DNA of 30,871 nucleotides from a virus. The position numbers were made by a program, and so were the translations under genes. A model generated the notes under the pieces. The model was not told where the DNA came from and did no database searches. It saw only the letters and a list, made by a program, of their open reading frames with translations. This document shows, one piece after another, positions 762 through 27,479 of this stretch; within the stretch, counting starts at the first letter, position 1, and every line of letters begins with the position of its first letter. The stretch is from UHGV virus genome UHGV-0057520; one strand, written 5' to 3'.

Positions 762-1034
762 TTACCTCGCCGTCAGTTGTTTTGATTTCCGGTAGCCTGC
801 CGAGTAAATGGCTACGTTTGGCAGGCAAATACTTCCACTGCATTCATCTGCCTTCTTGCTGAGAAGGCTGCCAAGTGATGCTGCTTTGTCTGCTCTGACG
901 CAACCAGAGAGCTTTAGCGCAATTTTTCGCGCCAGTCGCTGCTCTTGCATTGCCTGTTCACGTTGAGCCTGTCTGCGTGCTCTGCGGCGATTTCTGGCGT
1001 TATCGTCAGCCAGATATGTAATGACTACTGTCAT
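762..1034 (-). CDS. N: antitermination protein N (P22 gene 24-like)
   Basis: 90 aa; begins MTV(V)ITY and ends YRKSKQLTAR, matching my recollection of P22 gp24; arginine-rich RNA-binding motif (ARNRRRARRQAQREQ) near the N-terminus; sits downstream of oL/nutL. Confidence 0.8.
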   Translation of the reverse strand: MTVVITYLADDNARNRRRARRQAQREQAMQEQRLARKIALKLSGCVRADKAASLGSLLSKKADECSGSICLPNVAIYSAGYRKSKQLTAR

Positions 1035-1141
1035 GTTGACCTCCGATGATTGACTTTGGCGGTGACGCGCCGGGTGCTTATCTTCCGGTTGCCGTCGTGC
1101 AGCTGCACTTCACATCACCCCAAAGCCAACTACTCTTTGGT

Positions 1142-1182
1142 TCCCGCATTTCGGCGGGACAATCCCATCAATGTTAAAGAGC
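1142..1182 (-). promoter_or_regulatory. nutL: boxB hairpin (1142-1159) and boxA-like element (1172-1182)
   Basis: Minus-strand sequence TCCCGCCGAAATGCGGGA is a 6-bp stem with 6-nt loop, identical to the hairpin after cro at 2839-2856; GCTCTTTAACA lies just upstream on the transcribed strand. Confidence 0.6.
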
Positions 1183-1230
1183 CTGCCAATCTGTTCCGTT
1201 TGGCTACCAGCGTCCTGCTGATGGCTAAAG

Positions 1231-1271
1231 AATACTGTAGGTATTTTATTGTGTAAATACCCAAGGTATTT
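1231..1271. promoter_or_regulatory. oL operator pair with pL
   Basis: Two palindromes of form AATAC-N5-GTATT (AATACTGTAGGTATT at 1231-1245; AAATACCCAAGGTATTT at 1255-1271), same half-sites as the cI-cro intergenic operators. Confidence 0.55.
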
Positions 1272-1402
1272 ATTTTTGATGAAATAATGATAAGCAAATG
1301 AATACAAAGGATATTTATTTTTTTCGGTGTCTACTTGTTCAGTGCTTTTTATGCGGGATATGTGAAGTGGATCCCGATAGCTATTGCTGCCGGGATTATA
1401 GG

Positions 1403-1771
1403 TTAGTCAGCGAAGGTTAAGACGAGAATTACCTTAATGATGTCTGCTACAACAGACACGGCCATAGATAAACCAAAGACGATCCAAGCCACAGTGATGT
1501 CTTCACTACCATCGTATAGAGTTCCGTAATCACTGGTGTAAGGCGTAAATGTCGCGCCTTGATACAATAGGTATAAGCTTGATCCATAGAGGATAAATGC
1601 AGATATCCCTTGTATTGCTATGATCACAAGAATCATGAAACGAGCTGATCTATGCGCCCAAGCCTGGCTTATTTTTTCTGATAGAGATTTCGCAATAAAA
1701 GCATGCGCTAAGCCGTAAATTGTCGAGATTGCCAACATCCCAAAAAAGCTTGCTATAGCGGTTCCAACCAT
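1403..1771 (-). CDS. small multi-pass membrane protein co-transcribed with cI (candidate lysogen-expressed exclusion protein)
   Basis: ORF track 1403..1792 begins on TTG overlapping the cI stop; first ATG at 1769-1771 preceded by a GGGG ribosome-binding site; about 122 aa with three to four hydrophobic helices; occupies the position rexA/rexB hold in lambda. Confidence 0.6.
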   Translation of the reverse strand: MVGTAIASFFGMLAISTIYGLAHAFIAKSLSEKISQAWAHRSARFMILVIIAIQGISAFILYGSSLYLLYQGATFTPYTSDYGTLYDGSEDITVAWIVFGLSMAVSVVADIIKVILVLTFAD

Positions 1772-1788
1772 AAGCGCCCCTTGCGTGA

Positions 1789-2505
1789 TCAAACCAGCCT
1801 TAGTTTTGTCTCAATTGCAACGCCTATAATCTTGCAGTTTCCATTGATTGGCACGAGAGGCCATGCAGGATTAAGTCCCTTGAGGTATTTATTTCCGCCG
1901 TCGATTATCAGCTTCTTGAATGTTGCTTCGTTAGAGTCAGAAAGTTTTGCTATGACCAAGCTGCCGTTGATCGCCTCCCTTCCGGTATCGAAAAGAACGA
2001 ATGTTCCCTCTGGAATGCTTAACCCAACCGGTGCCGTCATTGAATCACCTTCCACTTTAAGCCAGAACGCATTACCTTGAATATGCGCGTCAGACTCAAG
2101 CCAAACATCTATGTCTTTAATGGTGTATGGTTCGCATGCTTCACACCACGAGCCAGCCTGGATACTGCTTAACACCGGATACCTCTTTCCTGCTCTGTAT
2201 TCCCCTGCATACCTTACGTTGGCATCGCTCTTAAGGCTTTCTGCCTGTTCTGCAACCTTGGCAGCAATTGACTGGCTAAAATCAGCAATTGAGACTTGCA
2301 ACAATCGTGCAAAACCAGATGCAACCTCAACGTTTAGCGCGTTTCTGCCATTAAGATAATGCCCTACCGCTCCTTGGGTGATACCCAGTTCATCAGCGAT
2401 TGAGTATTGGGTTATTCCCAATTCTTTCTTTTTTGACTCATACAAAGCCTTAAGCCGCTTAGCGTCTTCGAGCTGTTCTGTCGTCAGTGATTTTTTATTT
2501 TCCAT
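1789..2505 (-). CDS. cI: cI-type prophage repressor (HTH N-terminal domain, LexA/S24-like C-terminal autocleavage domain)
   Basis: 238 aa; N-terminus LTTEQLEDAKRLKALYESKKKELGITQ and C-terminus FWLKVEGDSMTAP...TFKKLI closely parallel lambda cI as I recall it; divergent from cro across an operator region. Confidence 0.9.
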   Translation of the reverse strand: MENKKSLTTEQLEDAKRLKALYESKKKELGITQYSIADELGITQGAVGHYLNGRNALNVEVASGFARLLQVSIADFSQSIAAKVAEQAESLKSDANVRYAGEYRAGKRYPVLSSIQAGSWCEACEPYTIKDIDVWLESDAHIQGNAFWLKVEGDSMTAPVGLSIPEGTFVLFDTGREAINGSLVIAKLSDSNEATFKKLIIDGGNKYLKGLNPAWPLVPINGNCKIIGVAIETKLRLV

Positions 2506-2540
2506 AGCTTAATTCTAATAGCTAAGGTACTTAAACTAAA

Positions 2541-2611: not shown

Positions 2612-2806
2612 ATGATTCGAATGACACTTGCCGATTACGCCAAAATCCATGGACAGGCTAAAGCAGCCAGTGACTTTGGTGTAATCCAGTGCGCTATCAG
2701 CAAGGCCATTCTGGCAGGCCGTAACATCATGGTTACGGTAAAGCCTGATGGCAGTGTGATTGGAGAGGAAGTTCGTCCTTTCCCAAGCAACAAGAAAAAC
2801 AAATAG
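2612..2806 (+). CDS. cro: Cro repressor
   Basis: ORF track starts on GTG at 2606; ATG at 2612 with GGAGAG ribosome-binding site; [20 protein letters not shown]...[11 protein letters not shown] parallels lambda Cro. Confidence 0.85.
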
Positions 2807-2812
2807 TAACAC

Positions 2813-2856
2813 CGCTCTTTAACAGTCATGGTCCTCATTCCCGCCGAAATGCGGGA
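2813..2856 (+). promoter_or_regulatory. nutR: boxA (CGCTCTTTAA, 2813-2822) and boxB hairpin (2839-2856)
   Basis: boxA closely matches the lambda consensus CGCTCTTA; boxB TCCCGCCGAAATGCGGGA is identical to the nutL hairpin. Confidence 0.65.
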
Positions 2857-2914
2857 ATACAACGCGCATAAGTTGATGCGCATAACTTCTTATTAGTTAA
2901 GGAAATACTTACAT

Positions 2915-10060: not shown

Positions 10061-10135
10061 GGGTCAGTCGTATAAAGGTCATTACGGAAGGCTGTTAACC
10101 TTCTTATCGTGGTTCGAGTCCACGCTGTCCCGCCA
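10061..10135 (+). tRNA. tRNA-like gene, anticodon GUU (Asn), non-canonical D-arm and one acceptor-stem mismatch
   Basis: Manual fold: acceptor 6 of 7 bp, perfect anticodon stem GAAGG/CCTTC with loop CTGTTAA, T-arm CGTGG-TTCGAGT-CCACG, 3' GCCA. Confidence 0.5.
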
Positions 10136-10140
10136 AATAT

Positions 10141-10216
10141 GCTGGTTTAGCTCCAATGGTAGAGCAGTCGCCTTGTAAGCGAATGGGTAGCGGTTCAAGT
10201 CCGTTAACCAGCACCA
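10141..10216 (+). tRNA. tRNA-Thr (anticodon UGU)
   Basis: Manual fold: perfect acceptor stem GCTGGTT/AACCAGC, D-arm GCTC-CAATGGTA-GAGC, anticodon loop CTTGTAA, T-loop TTCAAGT, discriminator A and CCA; 5 nt after the first tRNA. Confidence 0.7.
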
Positions 10217-23323: not shown

Positions 23324-24736
23324 ATGGCTACTTGGCAACAAGGAATCAACTCAGGCGGTTTTCTTGCTGGTATCGGTGGGCAAAACTCAAATGCGCCAAA
23401 GGCAAGTGATGTAAGTGAGGCGTTGGCCTATATTCGCCAGAACAACGAAATGGAGCGTTCAGGTCGCAATAACATCGGCCTTCAGGCGTTGCAGGGACTT
23501 GGTAGTGTCGCTCAAACATATCAAGCCGCAAAGCAACAGGAAGCGGATGCTGCATTCCAAAAAGAATATGCGGCAGCCATCCAGTCAGGCGATCGACAGC
23601 AGGTGCGAGATTTGATGACCAAATATCCTGGTCAATTAGAGAAGATTCAGTCTGGCATGAAGTGGGCAGACGAAGACCAGCGCAACTCTATCGGCACCTT
23701 AGCGGCTGGCGCTCGCCTTGCGGCATCGTCTCCAGAAGCAATGCAATCATGGCTACAAAACAACGCCAAGGAACTGACTCGCGTCGGTGTTGACCCTAAT
23801 AACGTTGCTCAGATGTATCAGCAGAACCCTTCAGGATTTGGTGAGTTTGTTGATCACCTTGGGATGGCTGCGCTTGGTCCGATTGATTACTTCAATGTTC
23901 AGGACAAGATGGCTGGTCGTGAGATTGACCGAGGCGGGCTGGCAGAGACAATCCGCAGCAATCAGGCTGGTGAAGCACTTCAGGCGAGAGGGCAAAACCT
24001 TTCCTATCAGTCAGCAATGACTGGGCACAATATCGCAGCACAACGCTTGGCTCTGGATCAGCAAGAGTTCGGGTTTAAGATGCAGCAAGCGCAGGAAAAG
24101 GCTCAGCAGTTGATTAGCGAAGCACCTAAGCTGTCAGTAAACATGGAAAAAGGCATCGAGACGGCTGTAAACAATGCCACAGCATCATCAAACTCAGCCA
24201 ATTCCATGAGTGCGCTTGCTCAACAGTTCAGAGCAGAAAAACCAACGACCGGCTTGTTCGGTAACGCACAGAACATGTTCGCAAAACTTACCGGAAGCGA
24301 TACGACATTGCGTGATTTGCGCATTCGCCAAAATGCCCTTGTTAACAGTCAGGTTCTTAAATTCCTACCTCCCGGCCCAGCAACGGATAAAGACGTTGAG
24401 ATCGTTCGACAGGGTGCGCCAACTGACATGGATAACCCTGAGACGGTCGCAAGATGGCTTGATGCAATGGCAAACCTTGAGCGACGAAACGCGCAGTTTA
24501 ATGAGTTTAAAGCTGAGTGGATGAGCGCGAATGGCAACCCTGGACAATCGCGTAATGGCGGTCAGATATTGGGGTTGGATGTTAAAAAAGGTGAATCATT
24601 GGGGAGTGCCGTTAAGCGGTATATGTCAATGAATACTGACGCAGCGCCAGCACAAGATTCGACACCTTCAGGAGAACCACGGAATCAGGTTGGATCATAT
24701 ACCTCAAAATCAGGCATTCAATTTACGGTGGAATGA
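23324..24736 (+). CDS. ejection protein, gp20-like
   Basis: 470 aa (P22 gp20 is about 471 aa); assigned by synteny and size. Confidence 0.7.
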
Positions 24737-26580
24737 TGAAAGTAACTGCAAACGGTAAGACATTTACCTTTCCTGATGGTACGAGCACCGAAGATATTGG
24801 CACCGCCATTGATGAGTATTTTGCTGGTCAGGCTGTTCAGCAACAAACAGTTAATCAGGCCAATAATGCACCAACACGGGAAGAACCATCATTGATGCAA
24901 CAAGCTGGCGATTGGCTCACTGGTGGTCAAAGTGCAGGGCAAATTGCGGAACAGGCTGGTCGTGGTCTGGTAAACATACCATTTGACGTATTGCAGGGCG
25001 GCGCAAGTCTGATTAATGCAATCAGCCAGGGGCTTGGTGGCCCCAAGGTTTTGGACGATGTCTATCGTCCAGTCGATCGACCAACAGACCCTTATGCGCA
25101 AGCTGGAGAAACAATTGGCGGGTATTTAGTTCCAGGAGTTGGAACGGCAGGAAGCATGGCTATTGGATCACTGGCAGAGGCCGCAAATCAGAAAGGCGAT
25201 TTCGCACAAAATGCAGCTAAAAATGCCGGAGTTAACCTTGCCGCTCAGGGGGTTCTTTCCGCAGCAGCAAAGGGAATAGGGCGTGGAATAACGGCTATAA
25301 AAGGTGATATTGCGCCAGAAGTGGCGAAGAAAATTGCCACATCAGAATCGATGGGCGTGACACCAATGACATCTGATGTTATCACGCCGAAAAATGCTTT
25401 CACTCGCGGCCTAACTCAGGATGCCGAGGGGGCTTTGCTCGGGACAGGCTCAAAGCGAGCGGAGCAATATGCAACGCGTAGTAAGCTGGTAAGTAATTAT
25501 TTTGACCGTTTTGGTGAGTACAACCCTGATGATGTGGTGAAATCTCTTACCACCACGTTAAGGGGGCGGAAGGATGCCGCTGGCGCTGTTATCAATGACG
25601 TCACCAATAAAATGGGTAATGCCGCAGTTGATACCACAAATACCATGAATGCTCTGAATACAGCGATCGCAAGACAGGAACGGCTTGGGACGTCTGCCAA
25701 TCAAAGCCTGCTTACATCCTTGCGTAACCTACGTGAAGAATTAGCAAACCCTGCAACTGATTTGGATGTTACGTTTGATCTCTTGCGTCAGCACAGAACA
25801 GCATTTAGATCTAATGTTCAGGGAGATGCTATGGTCTTCCCAAACCAGGCAAAAGCAGCTACCAATATGGTAGAGAATGCAATGTCAAAAGATCTTCGTA
25901 ACGCAGTTGCAAAAAACCTCGGTGCATCAGACGCAGCAAAATACCTTAAAGCAAATTCCGATTATGCAAACGTTTATAATAAGGTGCTTAATAAAAACAT
26001 TGCTAACAAGCTCAACAAGGCAAGCAGTGAAGCCAGTCCTGAACTTATAAATACCGTTGTATTAAGCAGAAAACCATCTGACGTGAAACGAATCTGGAGC
26101 GCATTGGATAATAAAGGGAAAGATGCTATGCGTGCAGCTTATGTCAGCAAAATAGCGGAAAAGGCCGGTGACTCTCCAGCCAAGTTCATCACTGAAGTTA
26201 ATAAGCTGAAATCTCAGTCAGGCGGTGAAATTTACAACACTATTTTTTCTGGAAAGCACATGAAAGAGCTTGATTCTCTTCATGAAGTTCTACAGCAAAC
26301 AGCAAGGTCAGACACCGCAAATGTAGTAACTCAGACGGGGCAATCGCAAGCCAACAGGATAAGGACGATTGGCGCAACTGCGACTCTTGGCGTATCAATG
26401 GGGCTTGAGGCTGGTTTCGGTGCAATGATGCGCTTGTATGAGTCAAAAGCAGCAAGGAATGCTCTCTTACGTTTGGCAAACACCAAAGCAGGAACACCAG
26501 CCTATGAAAGAGCGCTAAATAATGCTGCAAATGCGATACGCCCTATACTTTCAAGCCAAATTACAGCAGAACAGCAATAA
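24733..26580 (+). CDS. ejection protein, gp16-like
   Basis: 615 aa (P22 gp16 is about 609 aa); assigned by synteny and size. Confidence 0.7.
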
Positions 26581-26593
26581 AAATAAGATATAA

Positions 26594-27078
26594 CTATCTG
26601 ATATTACTGCTACTGTTGCATGTTACCGTGTTTCCAAATCCTGAATTGCAGTTTGTATATGTGTCAACGCGTGTTGGGTAAGGTTGAGTTATAACAGGCT
26701 GGCGCGCTTTTTGCTCGATCGCTTGCATTGTGTTTACAGCCTGATAATTCAATAAAGCCTGCTGGAATGCTTGGCTTTGTGCTATTTGTTGTGCTTGTTC
26801 TTGGCTTTGTAATTGAACATAAAGATTCTGAAGTTCAAGTCTTGCCTGTGTGTCACTTATCTTGCCTTCATCGACACCTTGCCCGAGCATCTTCGCAGCA
26901 AGGACATACAGCTTAGGTGTTGGTGCTGATGCCATGCGAGAGTCGTTCTTCAAGCTGGCATCAAGGCAATTAGCCATATCGCTAAGCTTTGGATAGCGTT
27001 GCTCGCAACTTGCCTGATAGTCGCTTACTTTTGCGCACCCAGCCAGCAGAAGCGGGATAATTAACAGTGATTTTTTCA
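26594..27078 (-). CDS. lipoprotein, about 161 aa mature-region Gln-rich (candidate exclusion or conversion factor)
   Basis: ORF track 26594..27130; likely start is the ATG at 27076-27078 giving MKKSLLIIPLLLAGC (signal peptide and lipobox); opposite strand to the flanking late genes; Gln-rich helical segment then Cys-containing C-terminus. Confidence 0.6.
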
Positions 27079-27113
27079 TATAATTAACTCTCCTTAGTTT
27101 TGCGCAGGATACC

Positions 27114-27479
27114 ATGAAAAAAGTTAACATTGGAAACGTACCAAAGATGCTCGTTCCGCTCTTTGAGAGCGGTACAATTGTGTTTTGTAGAGACTTTCCA
27201 GAATGGCAACGCCTGCATCAAAAACTTGGCGTTGACGTGCATGACTCGGACGCCAACGGAGCGTCTCATACAATGAGTAGCGAGAATGGTGTTTTGCATG
27301 TGATAGGCGTGTTCAATGGCAAACTATCTACTATTGCCCATGAGTGCGCTCACATGGCATTCGATATCTGCTCAAGGGTAGGTGTTGATGTTGAACCAGG
27401 AAGAGCCAACGAGACTTACTGCTACTTAATGAGCAGGCTTGTTGAGTTCTGCGAGCGACATATCAAAAAGCCGGAGTGA
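27114..27479 (+). CDS. small HExxH protein, possibly ImmA/IrrE-like (M78) zinc metallopeptidase
   Basis: 121 aa; HECAH motif followed about 15 residues later by RANETYCYLM, resembling the HExxH...E.EAN.FA signature of ImmA/IrrE domains as I recall them. Confidence 0.5.
   Translation: MKKVNIGNVPKMLVPLFESGTIVFCRDFPEWQRLHQKLGVDVHDSDANGASHTMSSENGVLHVIGVFNGKLSTIAHECAHMAFDICSRVGVDVEPGRANETYCYLMSRLVEFCERHIKKPE

Follow-up and report, generated by a model that had tools for sequence, protein, structure and literature searches.

The interval between the repressor gene cI and the left operator (OL) of lambdoid phages is a known address of lysogen-expressed exclusion genes, with rexAB of lambda, stk of 933W and hex of 434 all described as such (PMC3564112), and the region between cI and N, where bstA lies in BTP1, has explicitly been called a hotspot (PMC8585504). 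Occupation of the slot is optional, P22 having nothing between c2 and OL. Here we describe the occupant of this slot in UHGV virus genome UHGV-0057520, a stretch of 30,871 nucleotides that is termed the window below. It is a single gene, hkaS, which lies directly behind cI on the same strand and encodes a small polytopic membrane protein of 122 amino acids, and whose product is possibly a factor that excludes other phages from the lysogen.

Several described systems resemble HkaS in part. RexB of lambda, made from the repressor transcript, is likewise a small polytopic inner-membrane protein encoded between cI and OL (PMC8585504). RexB, however, has 144 amino acids and is the partner of the sensor RexA, whereas the window holds only one open reading frame between cI and OL and no rexA-like gene. 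SieA of P22 is a small inner-membrane protein with three predicted transmembrane (TM) domains that blocks DNA delivery by interfering with the ejection-protein conduit; like HkaS, it is small, is encoded by a prophage, is predicted to cross the membrane three times and lacks an enzymatic domain (PMC10883804). It differs in length (162-164 amino acids) and in place, since sieA, which has a promoter of its own, follows gene 16 close to immI, and hkaS lies behind cI. Hex of 434 shares slot and transcript with the repressor, excludes P22, stabilises the lysogen and dampens RecA-stimulated repressor cleavage, its start codon being uncertain (PMC3564112). Like hkaS, hex occupies the slot behind cI, with a start that is close to the cI stop or overlaps it, but Hex as annotated has one N-terminal hydrophobic segment and a hydrophilic body, unlike the three TM segments of HkaS. 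As an observation apart, the 434 “repressor protection protein” (OL657227.1, 2109-2513) starts with a signal-peptide-like MIRIAALLSILLTTSANS, which is odd for a blocker of cleavage in the cytoplasm.

BstA of BTP1 and Stk of 933W are also defence genes that stand directly behind the prophage repressor and are expressed in the lysogen. BstA is described as acting at phage DNA replication sites (PMC8585504), and Stk as a tyrosine kinase (PMC3564112); HkaS differs from both as a membrane protein. BstA moreover occurs behind many different repressors, whereas HkaS was found only behind one type of cI C-terminal domain.

The hkaS gene, its family and its transcript

The features on which the following description leans are listed with their coordinates in the window.

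1403-1771, minus strand: hkaS, coding sequence of a predicted three-helix inner-membrane protein of 122 amino acids (ATG at 1771-1769, TAA at 1405-1403)
1777-1782, minus strand: Shine-Dalgarno sequence AAGGGG, 5 nucleotides upstream of the hkaS ATG and inside the cI-hkaS spacer
1790-1792, minus strand: TTG start of the mechanically called open reading frame, overlapping the cI stop; in frame here, where it would give 129 amino acids, and probably unused
1789-2505, minus strand: cI repressor, 238 amino acids, first gene of the presumed PRM operon (HTH_3 and Peptidase_S24 domains; phrog_4, transcriptional repressor); stop codon TGA at 1791-1789
2512-2540, minus strand: putative repressor-maintenance promoter PRM, with -35 TTTAGT at 2540-2535, a 17-nucleotide spacer and -10 TAGAAT at 2517-2512; read by eye on the analogy of lambda
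2516-2581, no strand: right operators OR3-OR2-OR1, mapped from the HK620 annotation at an offset of 1500 bases, with AATACnnnnnGTATT-type palindromes visible in the sequence
1222-1293, minus strand: left operators OL3-OL2-OL1 and left promoter PL (TTTACA-17-TATTCT at 1257-1229), from a promoter scan and the HK620 annotation
1371-1396, minus strand: stem-loop without U-tract (AUCCCGGCAGC...GCUAUCGGGAU) just past the hkaS stop, from RNA folding
1290-1320, minus strand: “tIMM”, a weak AT-rich hairpin that the HK620 annotators entered as the putative terminator of the cI transcript; placed from their feature table and the sequence

OL and PL form the left boundary of the immunity module, so that hkaS sits between cI and cI's own left operators, the place of rexAB, hex, stk and bstA in their respective phages. 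The earlier note on the window, which was made from its letters, had rightly recognised the rexA/rexB slot of lambda and the presence of one small membrane protein of roughly 122 amino acids in it, directly behind cI; this protein is real, conserved and under selection. Its statement that the protein could not be placed in a family, in contrast, is superseded. Nucleotides 1000-2900 of the window share 99.3-99.5% identity with the immunity regions of HK620, mEpX2, HK630, HZ41, phi296, phi367 (the last two with a host given as enterohaemorrhagic Escherichia coli) and others, and the open reading frame is hkaS of coliphage HK620 (AAK28867, GenBank AF335538), whose product is annotated as “unknown”. 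The protein is 99.2% identical to that of HK620 and HK630 and 100% identical to that of mEpX2, HZ41, phi296 and phi367, and the cI protein is 99.6-100% identical to cI of HK620 and mEpX2. In HK620 the gene has the same place between an HK620-type cI and OL, PL and N, without substantive difference, although the surrounding phage is a different mosaic with other genes left of N. Residues 8-129 of the 129-residue open reading frame match positions 1-122 of the 122 positions of PHROG 6534 (E 2.9e-79), a family without known function. Thus, hkaS is already catalogued as an unknown in a well-known hotspot and is not a new discovery.

The family is small. A word-indexed search of 5.8 billion proteins returned 12 clusters at 90% identity. 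These come from E. coli, Hafnia, Salmonella and metagenomes, the most distant being 52% identical. An exhaustive profile search of 1.84 billion representatives at 50% identity returned one full-length cluster and one fragment of 44 amino acids. Species-representative genomes gave a single hkaS locus, in Buttiauxella, and the IMG/VR collection 115 contigs. Among complete E. coli genomes, hkaS is present in 146 of 5,426 (2.7%, or about 1 in 37), always on the chromosome and always labelled “hypothetical protein”. There is no Pfam, NCBIfam or PADLOC family for HkaS and the PDB sequences gave 0 hits at E <= 10; a Pfam TssN match (E 0.03, 14 bits against a cut-off of 30) was dismissed as noise. No housekeeping or structural family, the kind of match that the earlier note had named beforehand as speaking against its reading, turned up in the Pfam, PHROG, PADLOC, NCBIfam, profile and PDB-sequence searches. 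By these comparisons the HkaS family is a tiny orphan, confined to prophage immunity modules.

The start of the gene was also described in the earlier note, which had hkaS translationally coupled to cI with the start of the called open reading frame overlapping the cI stop and the first ATG having its own GGGG ribosome-binding site. The latter is confirmed by AAGGGG at 5 nucleotides from the ATG. The overlapping TTG is indeed present in the window; however, the Salmonella-type homologue has an in-frame TAA immediately 5′ of the ATG and in the Hafnia-type one the TTG falls in another frame (loci L002, L008), while the ATG and an AAGGA-type Shine-Dalgarno sequence 5-8 nucleotides upstream are retained in all divergent homologues compared. 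PHROG 6534 and all deposited annotations begin at the ATG as well. Since the TTG is not conserved and annotations use the ATG, the overlap with the cI stop is coincidental. From the sequence, hkaS has its own initiation signals and strict translational coupling by overlap is unsupported; coupling would be at most loose, across a spacer of 15-20 nucleotides with a conserved AGGA/GGGG Shine-Dalgarno sequence. The spacer is 17 nucleotides in the window (1772-1788) and about 17-20 in every copy with readable upstream sequence.

As to transcription, simple sequence scans of the minus strand reported no promoter-like or terminator-like site between cI and hkaS. Upstream of cI, the -10 of the PRM-like promoter ends 6 nucleotides before the cI ATG and its -35 abuts OR2, whose centre lies about 43 base pairs upstream; the simple promoter scan did not report this putative PRM at 2512-2540. 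Given the PRM-like promoter and the uninterrupted junction, co-transcription of cI and hkaS is likely, and hkaS shares with the accessory genes of other lambdoid PRM operons the location between cI and OL, the strand of cI and the lack of a detected intervening site. From gene order, hkaS would presumably also be transcribed from the repressor-establishment promoter PRE while lysogeny is being established. The cI messenger RNA from the putative PRM appears to be leaderless, as in lambda, whereas hkaS has a strong Shine-Dalgarno sequence, so that HkaS may be made in larger amounts than cI. The evidence for the stem-loop past the hkaS stop is weak (z = -1.4 for the whole region of 141 nucleotides) and it is not a canonical intrinsic terminator; a terminator scan found no intrinsic terminator after hkaS, nor did it detect tIMM. 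We also considered hkaS as a foreign moron by base composition, and rejected this because its guanine-plus-cytosine content (42%, against 45.5% in cI and 47% in the window) leaves too small a gap.

Linkage to cI, selection and protein architecture

The gene is contiguous with this type of cI in all 16 phage records, in all 146 of the complete E. coli genomes that carry it and in 80 of 80 assessable fetched loci, and it stands directly behind cI at all divergent metagenomic and genomic sites too. The carriers have four virion types, namely Lederbergvirus (HK620, the window), Lambdavirus (HK630), Hendrixvirinae (mEpX2) and Shiga toxin (Stx)-type Sepvirinae (phi296), which argues that hkaS travels with the immunity module and not with tail or ejection genes; lying between cI and OL, it will be carried along by any exchange of immunity. 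Behind the cI relatives of Serratia OS31, Cronobacter ENT39118, phage Fostie and Erwinia phage 49, which are 62-71% identical, no hkaS-like membrane reading frame was found; soluble reading frames or nothing take its place.

A prophage of an uncultured Buttiauxella sp. (CBCPKK010000004.1, 1567-2869) carries an hkaS homologue of 56% identity behind a chimeric cI. The C-terminal domain of this repressor shares about 90% identity with that of the window's cI, and its DNA-binding domain, like the neighbouring cro, is unrelated. This domain-swap recombinant links hkaS to the 3′ half of cI and not to immunity specificity. One might therefore ask whether HkaS serves the repressor and not the defence against incoming phages, acting within the membrane as a partner to the C-terminal domain of cI and either adjusting how stable the repressor is or passing an envelope or membrane signal on to the decision to induce, a thought prompted by this pairing and by the effect of 434 Hex on repressor cleavage; we give it little credence, and plain physical linkage is the simpler explanation of the pairing. 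A broader version, in which HkaS modulates the lysis-lysogeny switch or prophage stability, either in the manner of Hex, or via FtsH/HflKC on cII/cIII, or by a membrane signal to cI, appears decidedly unlikely. It has in its favour that Hex, in the same place, stabilises lysogens (PMC3564112), that hkaS would be transcribed from PRE just when lysogeny is established, judging by gene order, and that the Buttiauxella gene is kept with the cleavage and oligomerisation domain of cI; yet simple physical proximity would lead one to expect linkage to the 3′ half of cI, HkaS has no similarity to Hex, and only about 17 of its residues would face the cytoplasm.

Substitution patterns show that hkaS is a real gene under purifying selection. 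Against the Hafnia-type copy, the ratio of nonsynonymous to synonymous substitution rates (dN/dS) is 0.14, with a dS of 0.67 for hkaS and 0.73 for the adjacent cI, and the near-equal dS values indicate that the two genes diverged together; in every comparison, hkaS exceeds cI in dN by a factor of 4-5. In deeper comparisons synonymous sites are saturated, yet the frame, the length of 122 amino acids and the Shine-Dalgarno sequence are kept, and the 122-codon frame is intact in 81 of 81 fetched copies (80 viral contigs and one Buttiauxella genome contig). That hkaS is a functionless passenger, caught between cI and OL and surviving only because it moves with the immunity module, is hardly credible in view of these intact copies, the dN/dS and the confident structural model described below, even if its position within a co-adapted OL-cI-OR-cro block, its lack of a known domain and its very narrow taxonomic range are what such a passenger would have.

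The same conservation could be explained by a role that has nothing to do with other phages. Small membrane proteins often regulate larger membrane proteins, and HkaS might be a lysogenic-conversion factor that modulates a host transporter, a sensor kinase or an envelope-stress pathway and so raises the fitness of the lysogen. Purifying selection, retention in every copy examined and presence in E. coli from many sources, at 2.7% of the complete genomes, would suit such a role, as would phage Huey, of another immunity type, which by annotation has a PagP-like envelope gene beside its repressor. However, HkaS has no similarity to known regulators, the family is restricted to prophage immunity modules, and the characterised occupants of the slot that are named in the literature act on phages or on prophage induction (PMC3564112; PMC8585504), and we regard a conversion factor as improbable.

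The protein was modelled with AlphaFold2 from an alignment of eight sequences (predicted local distance difference test, pLDDT, 89.3; predicted template modelling score, pTM, 0.76). Three long helices span residues 2-29, 41-74 and 89-121 of the model; the first loop contains a further, short helix (31-38), and the second a small beta-hairpin at about residues 78-86. Kyte-Doolittle profiles give the same three hydrophobic segments in all full-length members, apart from the atypical P0007, which is without the first. Of the three to four hydrophobic helices proposed earlier, three and not four are thus borne out by both methods. The two loops differ in charge and in conservation, the latter computed among five divergent members.

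Residues 28-44: loop 1, K+R/D+E 4/1, 53% invariant, with the motif KISQAWAHRxARF
Residues 72-92: loop 2, K+R/D+E 0/4, 19% invariant

By the positive-inside rule, the predicted topology is three TM helices with the N-terminus out and the C-terminus in, which would place about 17 residues (the basic, conserved loop) in the cytoplasm and about 21 (the acidic, variable loop) in the periplasm. Q54, D110 and K113 are invariant polar residues within the helices, and the C-terminus ILVLTFAD is almost invariant. With soluble loops this tiny, a role as sensor or enzyme is unlikely and action within the membrane likely.

Class I holins have three TM segments in an N-out/C-in topology, and HkaS shares both, as judged from loop charges and the model. 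This brings up an abortive-infection effector, that is, an oligomeric latent channel or other membrane depolariser that would respond when a superinfecting phage perturbs the membrane and would work like RexB without RexA, or like SieB. Besides the holin-like topology, the occupation of the rexAB slot would agree with it, and Q54, D110, K113 and the C-terminal ILVLTFAD are candidates for the lining of an oligomeric pore. On the other hand, holins have a charged C-terminal tail and are encoded in a lysis cassette, whereas HkaS ends in ...VLTFAD without a basic tail and its gene lies in the immunity region; there is also no partner gene and no cytoplasmic domain that could sense infection, and HkaS is unlike RexB, SieB and the P22 holin in sequence and has no match in PADLOC. 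We consider an effector of this kind unlikely.

Exclusion of heteroimmune phages as a candidate function

What we tentatively favour, as a possible reading that stays short of probable, is that HkaS, expressed in the lysogen from the PRM operon, sits in the inner membrane and keeps heteroimmune phages out, most likely at the stage of genome entry. In this proposal hkaS would be the second gene of the repressor (PRM/PRE) transcript in the HK620-type lambdoid immunity module, and HkaS would, as the gene architecture suggests, be made in the lysogen together with cI. It would then protect the lysogen from heteroimmune phages by acting at the inner membrane, where its target may be the trans-envelope DNA conduit of the incoming phage or else a host factor of the inner membrane on which this phage depends. 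Genome entry is favoured because of the position in the slot, the type of protein and the precedent of SieA, the best studied of the small prophage proteins with three TM segments in the inner membrane; HkaS may work like SieA, though by sequence it is no SieA. The high dN and the variable periplasmic loop fit an outward-facing interaction with fast-evolving partners. The exclusion or abortive-infection role for which the earlier note had argued is a hypothesis drawn from position and protein type, by which hkaS is a reasonable anti-phage candidate.

That said, a number of results weigh against exclusion at genome entry. Profile alignment of HkaS by hhalign gave a probability of 0.6% with RexB (nor did HkaS match a RexB entry of PADLOC or PHROG), 0.3% with SieA, 0.1% with SieB of P22 and lambda, 0.06% with 434 Hex and 0.3% with the P22 gp13 holin, and the cytoplasmic SieA motif FxRYPxEAxxFNK is absent from HkaS; by sequence, then, HkaS is a member of PHROG 6534 and not of the RexB, SieA, SieB, Hex or holin families. 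PADLOC-DB v2 gave 0 defence families at E <= 1, and fold searches with the model returned generic helical bundles only. The literature held nothing on hkaS under its gene name, the phage names, the protein accession or the PHROG identifier: “HkaS” occurs there as herbarium acronyms only, and no study of hkaS was found in work on the defence hotspots of lambdoid phages. Expression in the lysogen is read from gene architecture. The module is found in four virion types, so it cannot be matched to one injection apparatus. The high dN and the variable loop could also be explained by weaker constraint. Finally, gene order by itself accounts for part of the constant linkage to cI; retention under purifying selection still argues that hkaS is useful.

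If HkaS does exclude phages, it would represent a new family of single-gene, membrane-embedded defence proteins of 122 amino acids, unrelated in sequence to SieA and RexB. Genome entry is also blocked by two other small membrane proteins, T4 Imm and HK97 gp15; neither was compared individually with HkaS, which would, if exclusion is true, also be distinct from Imm. Exclusion by HkaS would add one more characterised occupant to the cI-N hotspot and, with Shiga-toxin-converting phages among the carrier records, would bear on the host range of phages in therapy and on the spread of lambdoid and Stx phages into lysogenic strains. Even without a phage phenotype, hkaS is a strictly conserved gene of the repressor operon that needs explanation. 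The candidate is experimentally accessible, as mEpX2 and HK630 carry the identical module and the host in the mEpX2 record is E. coli K-12 MG1655.

Other features of the window

At its left end the window carries a lambdoid immunity region, and the remainder is a P22-like (Lederbergvirus-type) virion module, nearest to that of vB_EcoP-720R6 and CUS-3. Around cI and hkaS, the immunity region further comprises the following.

762-1034, minus strand: N-type antiterminator (Pfam N_peptide, phrog_271)
about 1140-1293, minus strand: nutL, PL and OL, left of hkaS
2612-2806, plus strand: cro, beyond OR, followed by cII, an O-like replication gene and a DnaB-like helicase gene

An identical sequence of 18 nucleotides, CCCGCCGAAATGCGGGAA, occurs at 1141-1158 (minus strand) and 2840-2857 (plus strand) inside the regions annotated as nutL and nutR in HK620; it forms a boxB-like hairpin, which is consistent with the arginine-rich N protein encoded at 762-1034. 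Left of N are two genes of families with no assigned function on the minus strand, phrog_1636 at 1-471 (156 amino acids) and phrog_5305 at 534-761 (75 amino acids). They differ from hkaQ and hkaP of HK620, which marks another mosaic boundary beside the immunity module.

Between the early (replication) genes and the virion genes lie two adjacent tRNA genes on the plus strand, tRNA-Asn(GTT) at 10061-10135 and tRNA-Thr(TGT) at 10141-10216, as determined with Rfam and ARAGORN. A predicted lipoprotein of 161-178 amino acids with a MKKSLLIIPLLLAGC lipobox (26594-27130, minus strand; phrog_6067, function unknown) is encoded immediately past the gene-16-like DNA-transfer protein (24733-26580) and in the opposite orientation. 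It occupies the slot in which P22 keeps sieA, and could be a further prophage-expressed surface or exclusion factor.

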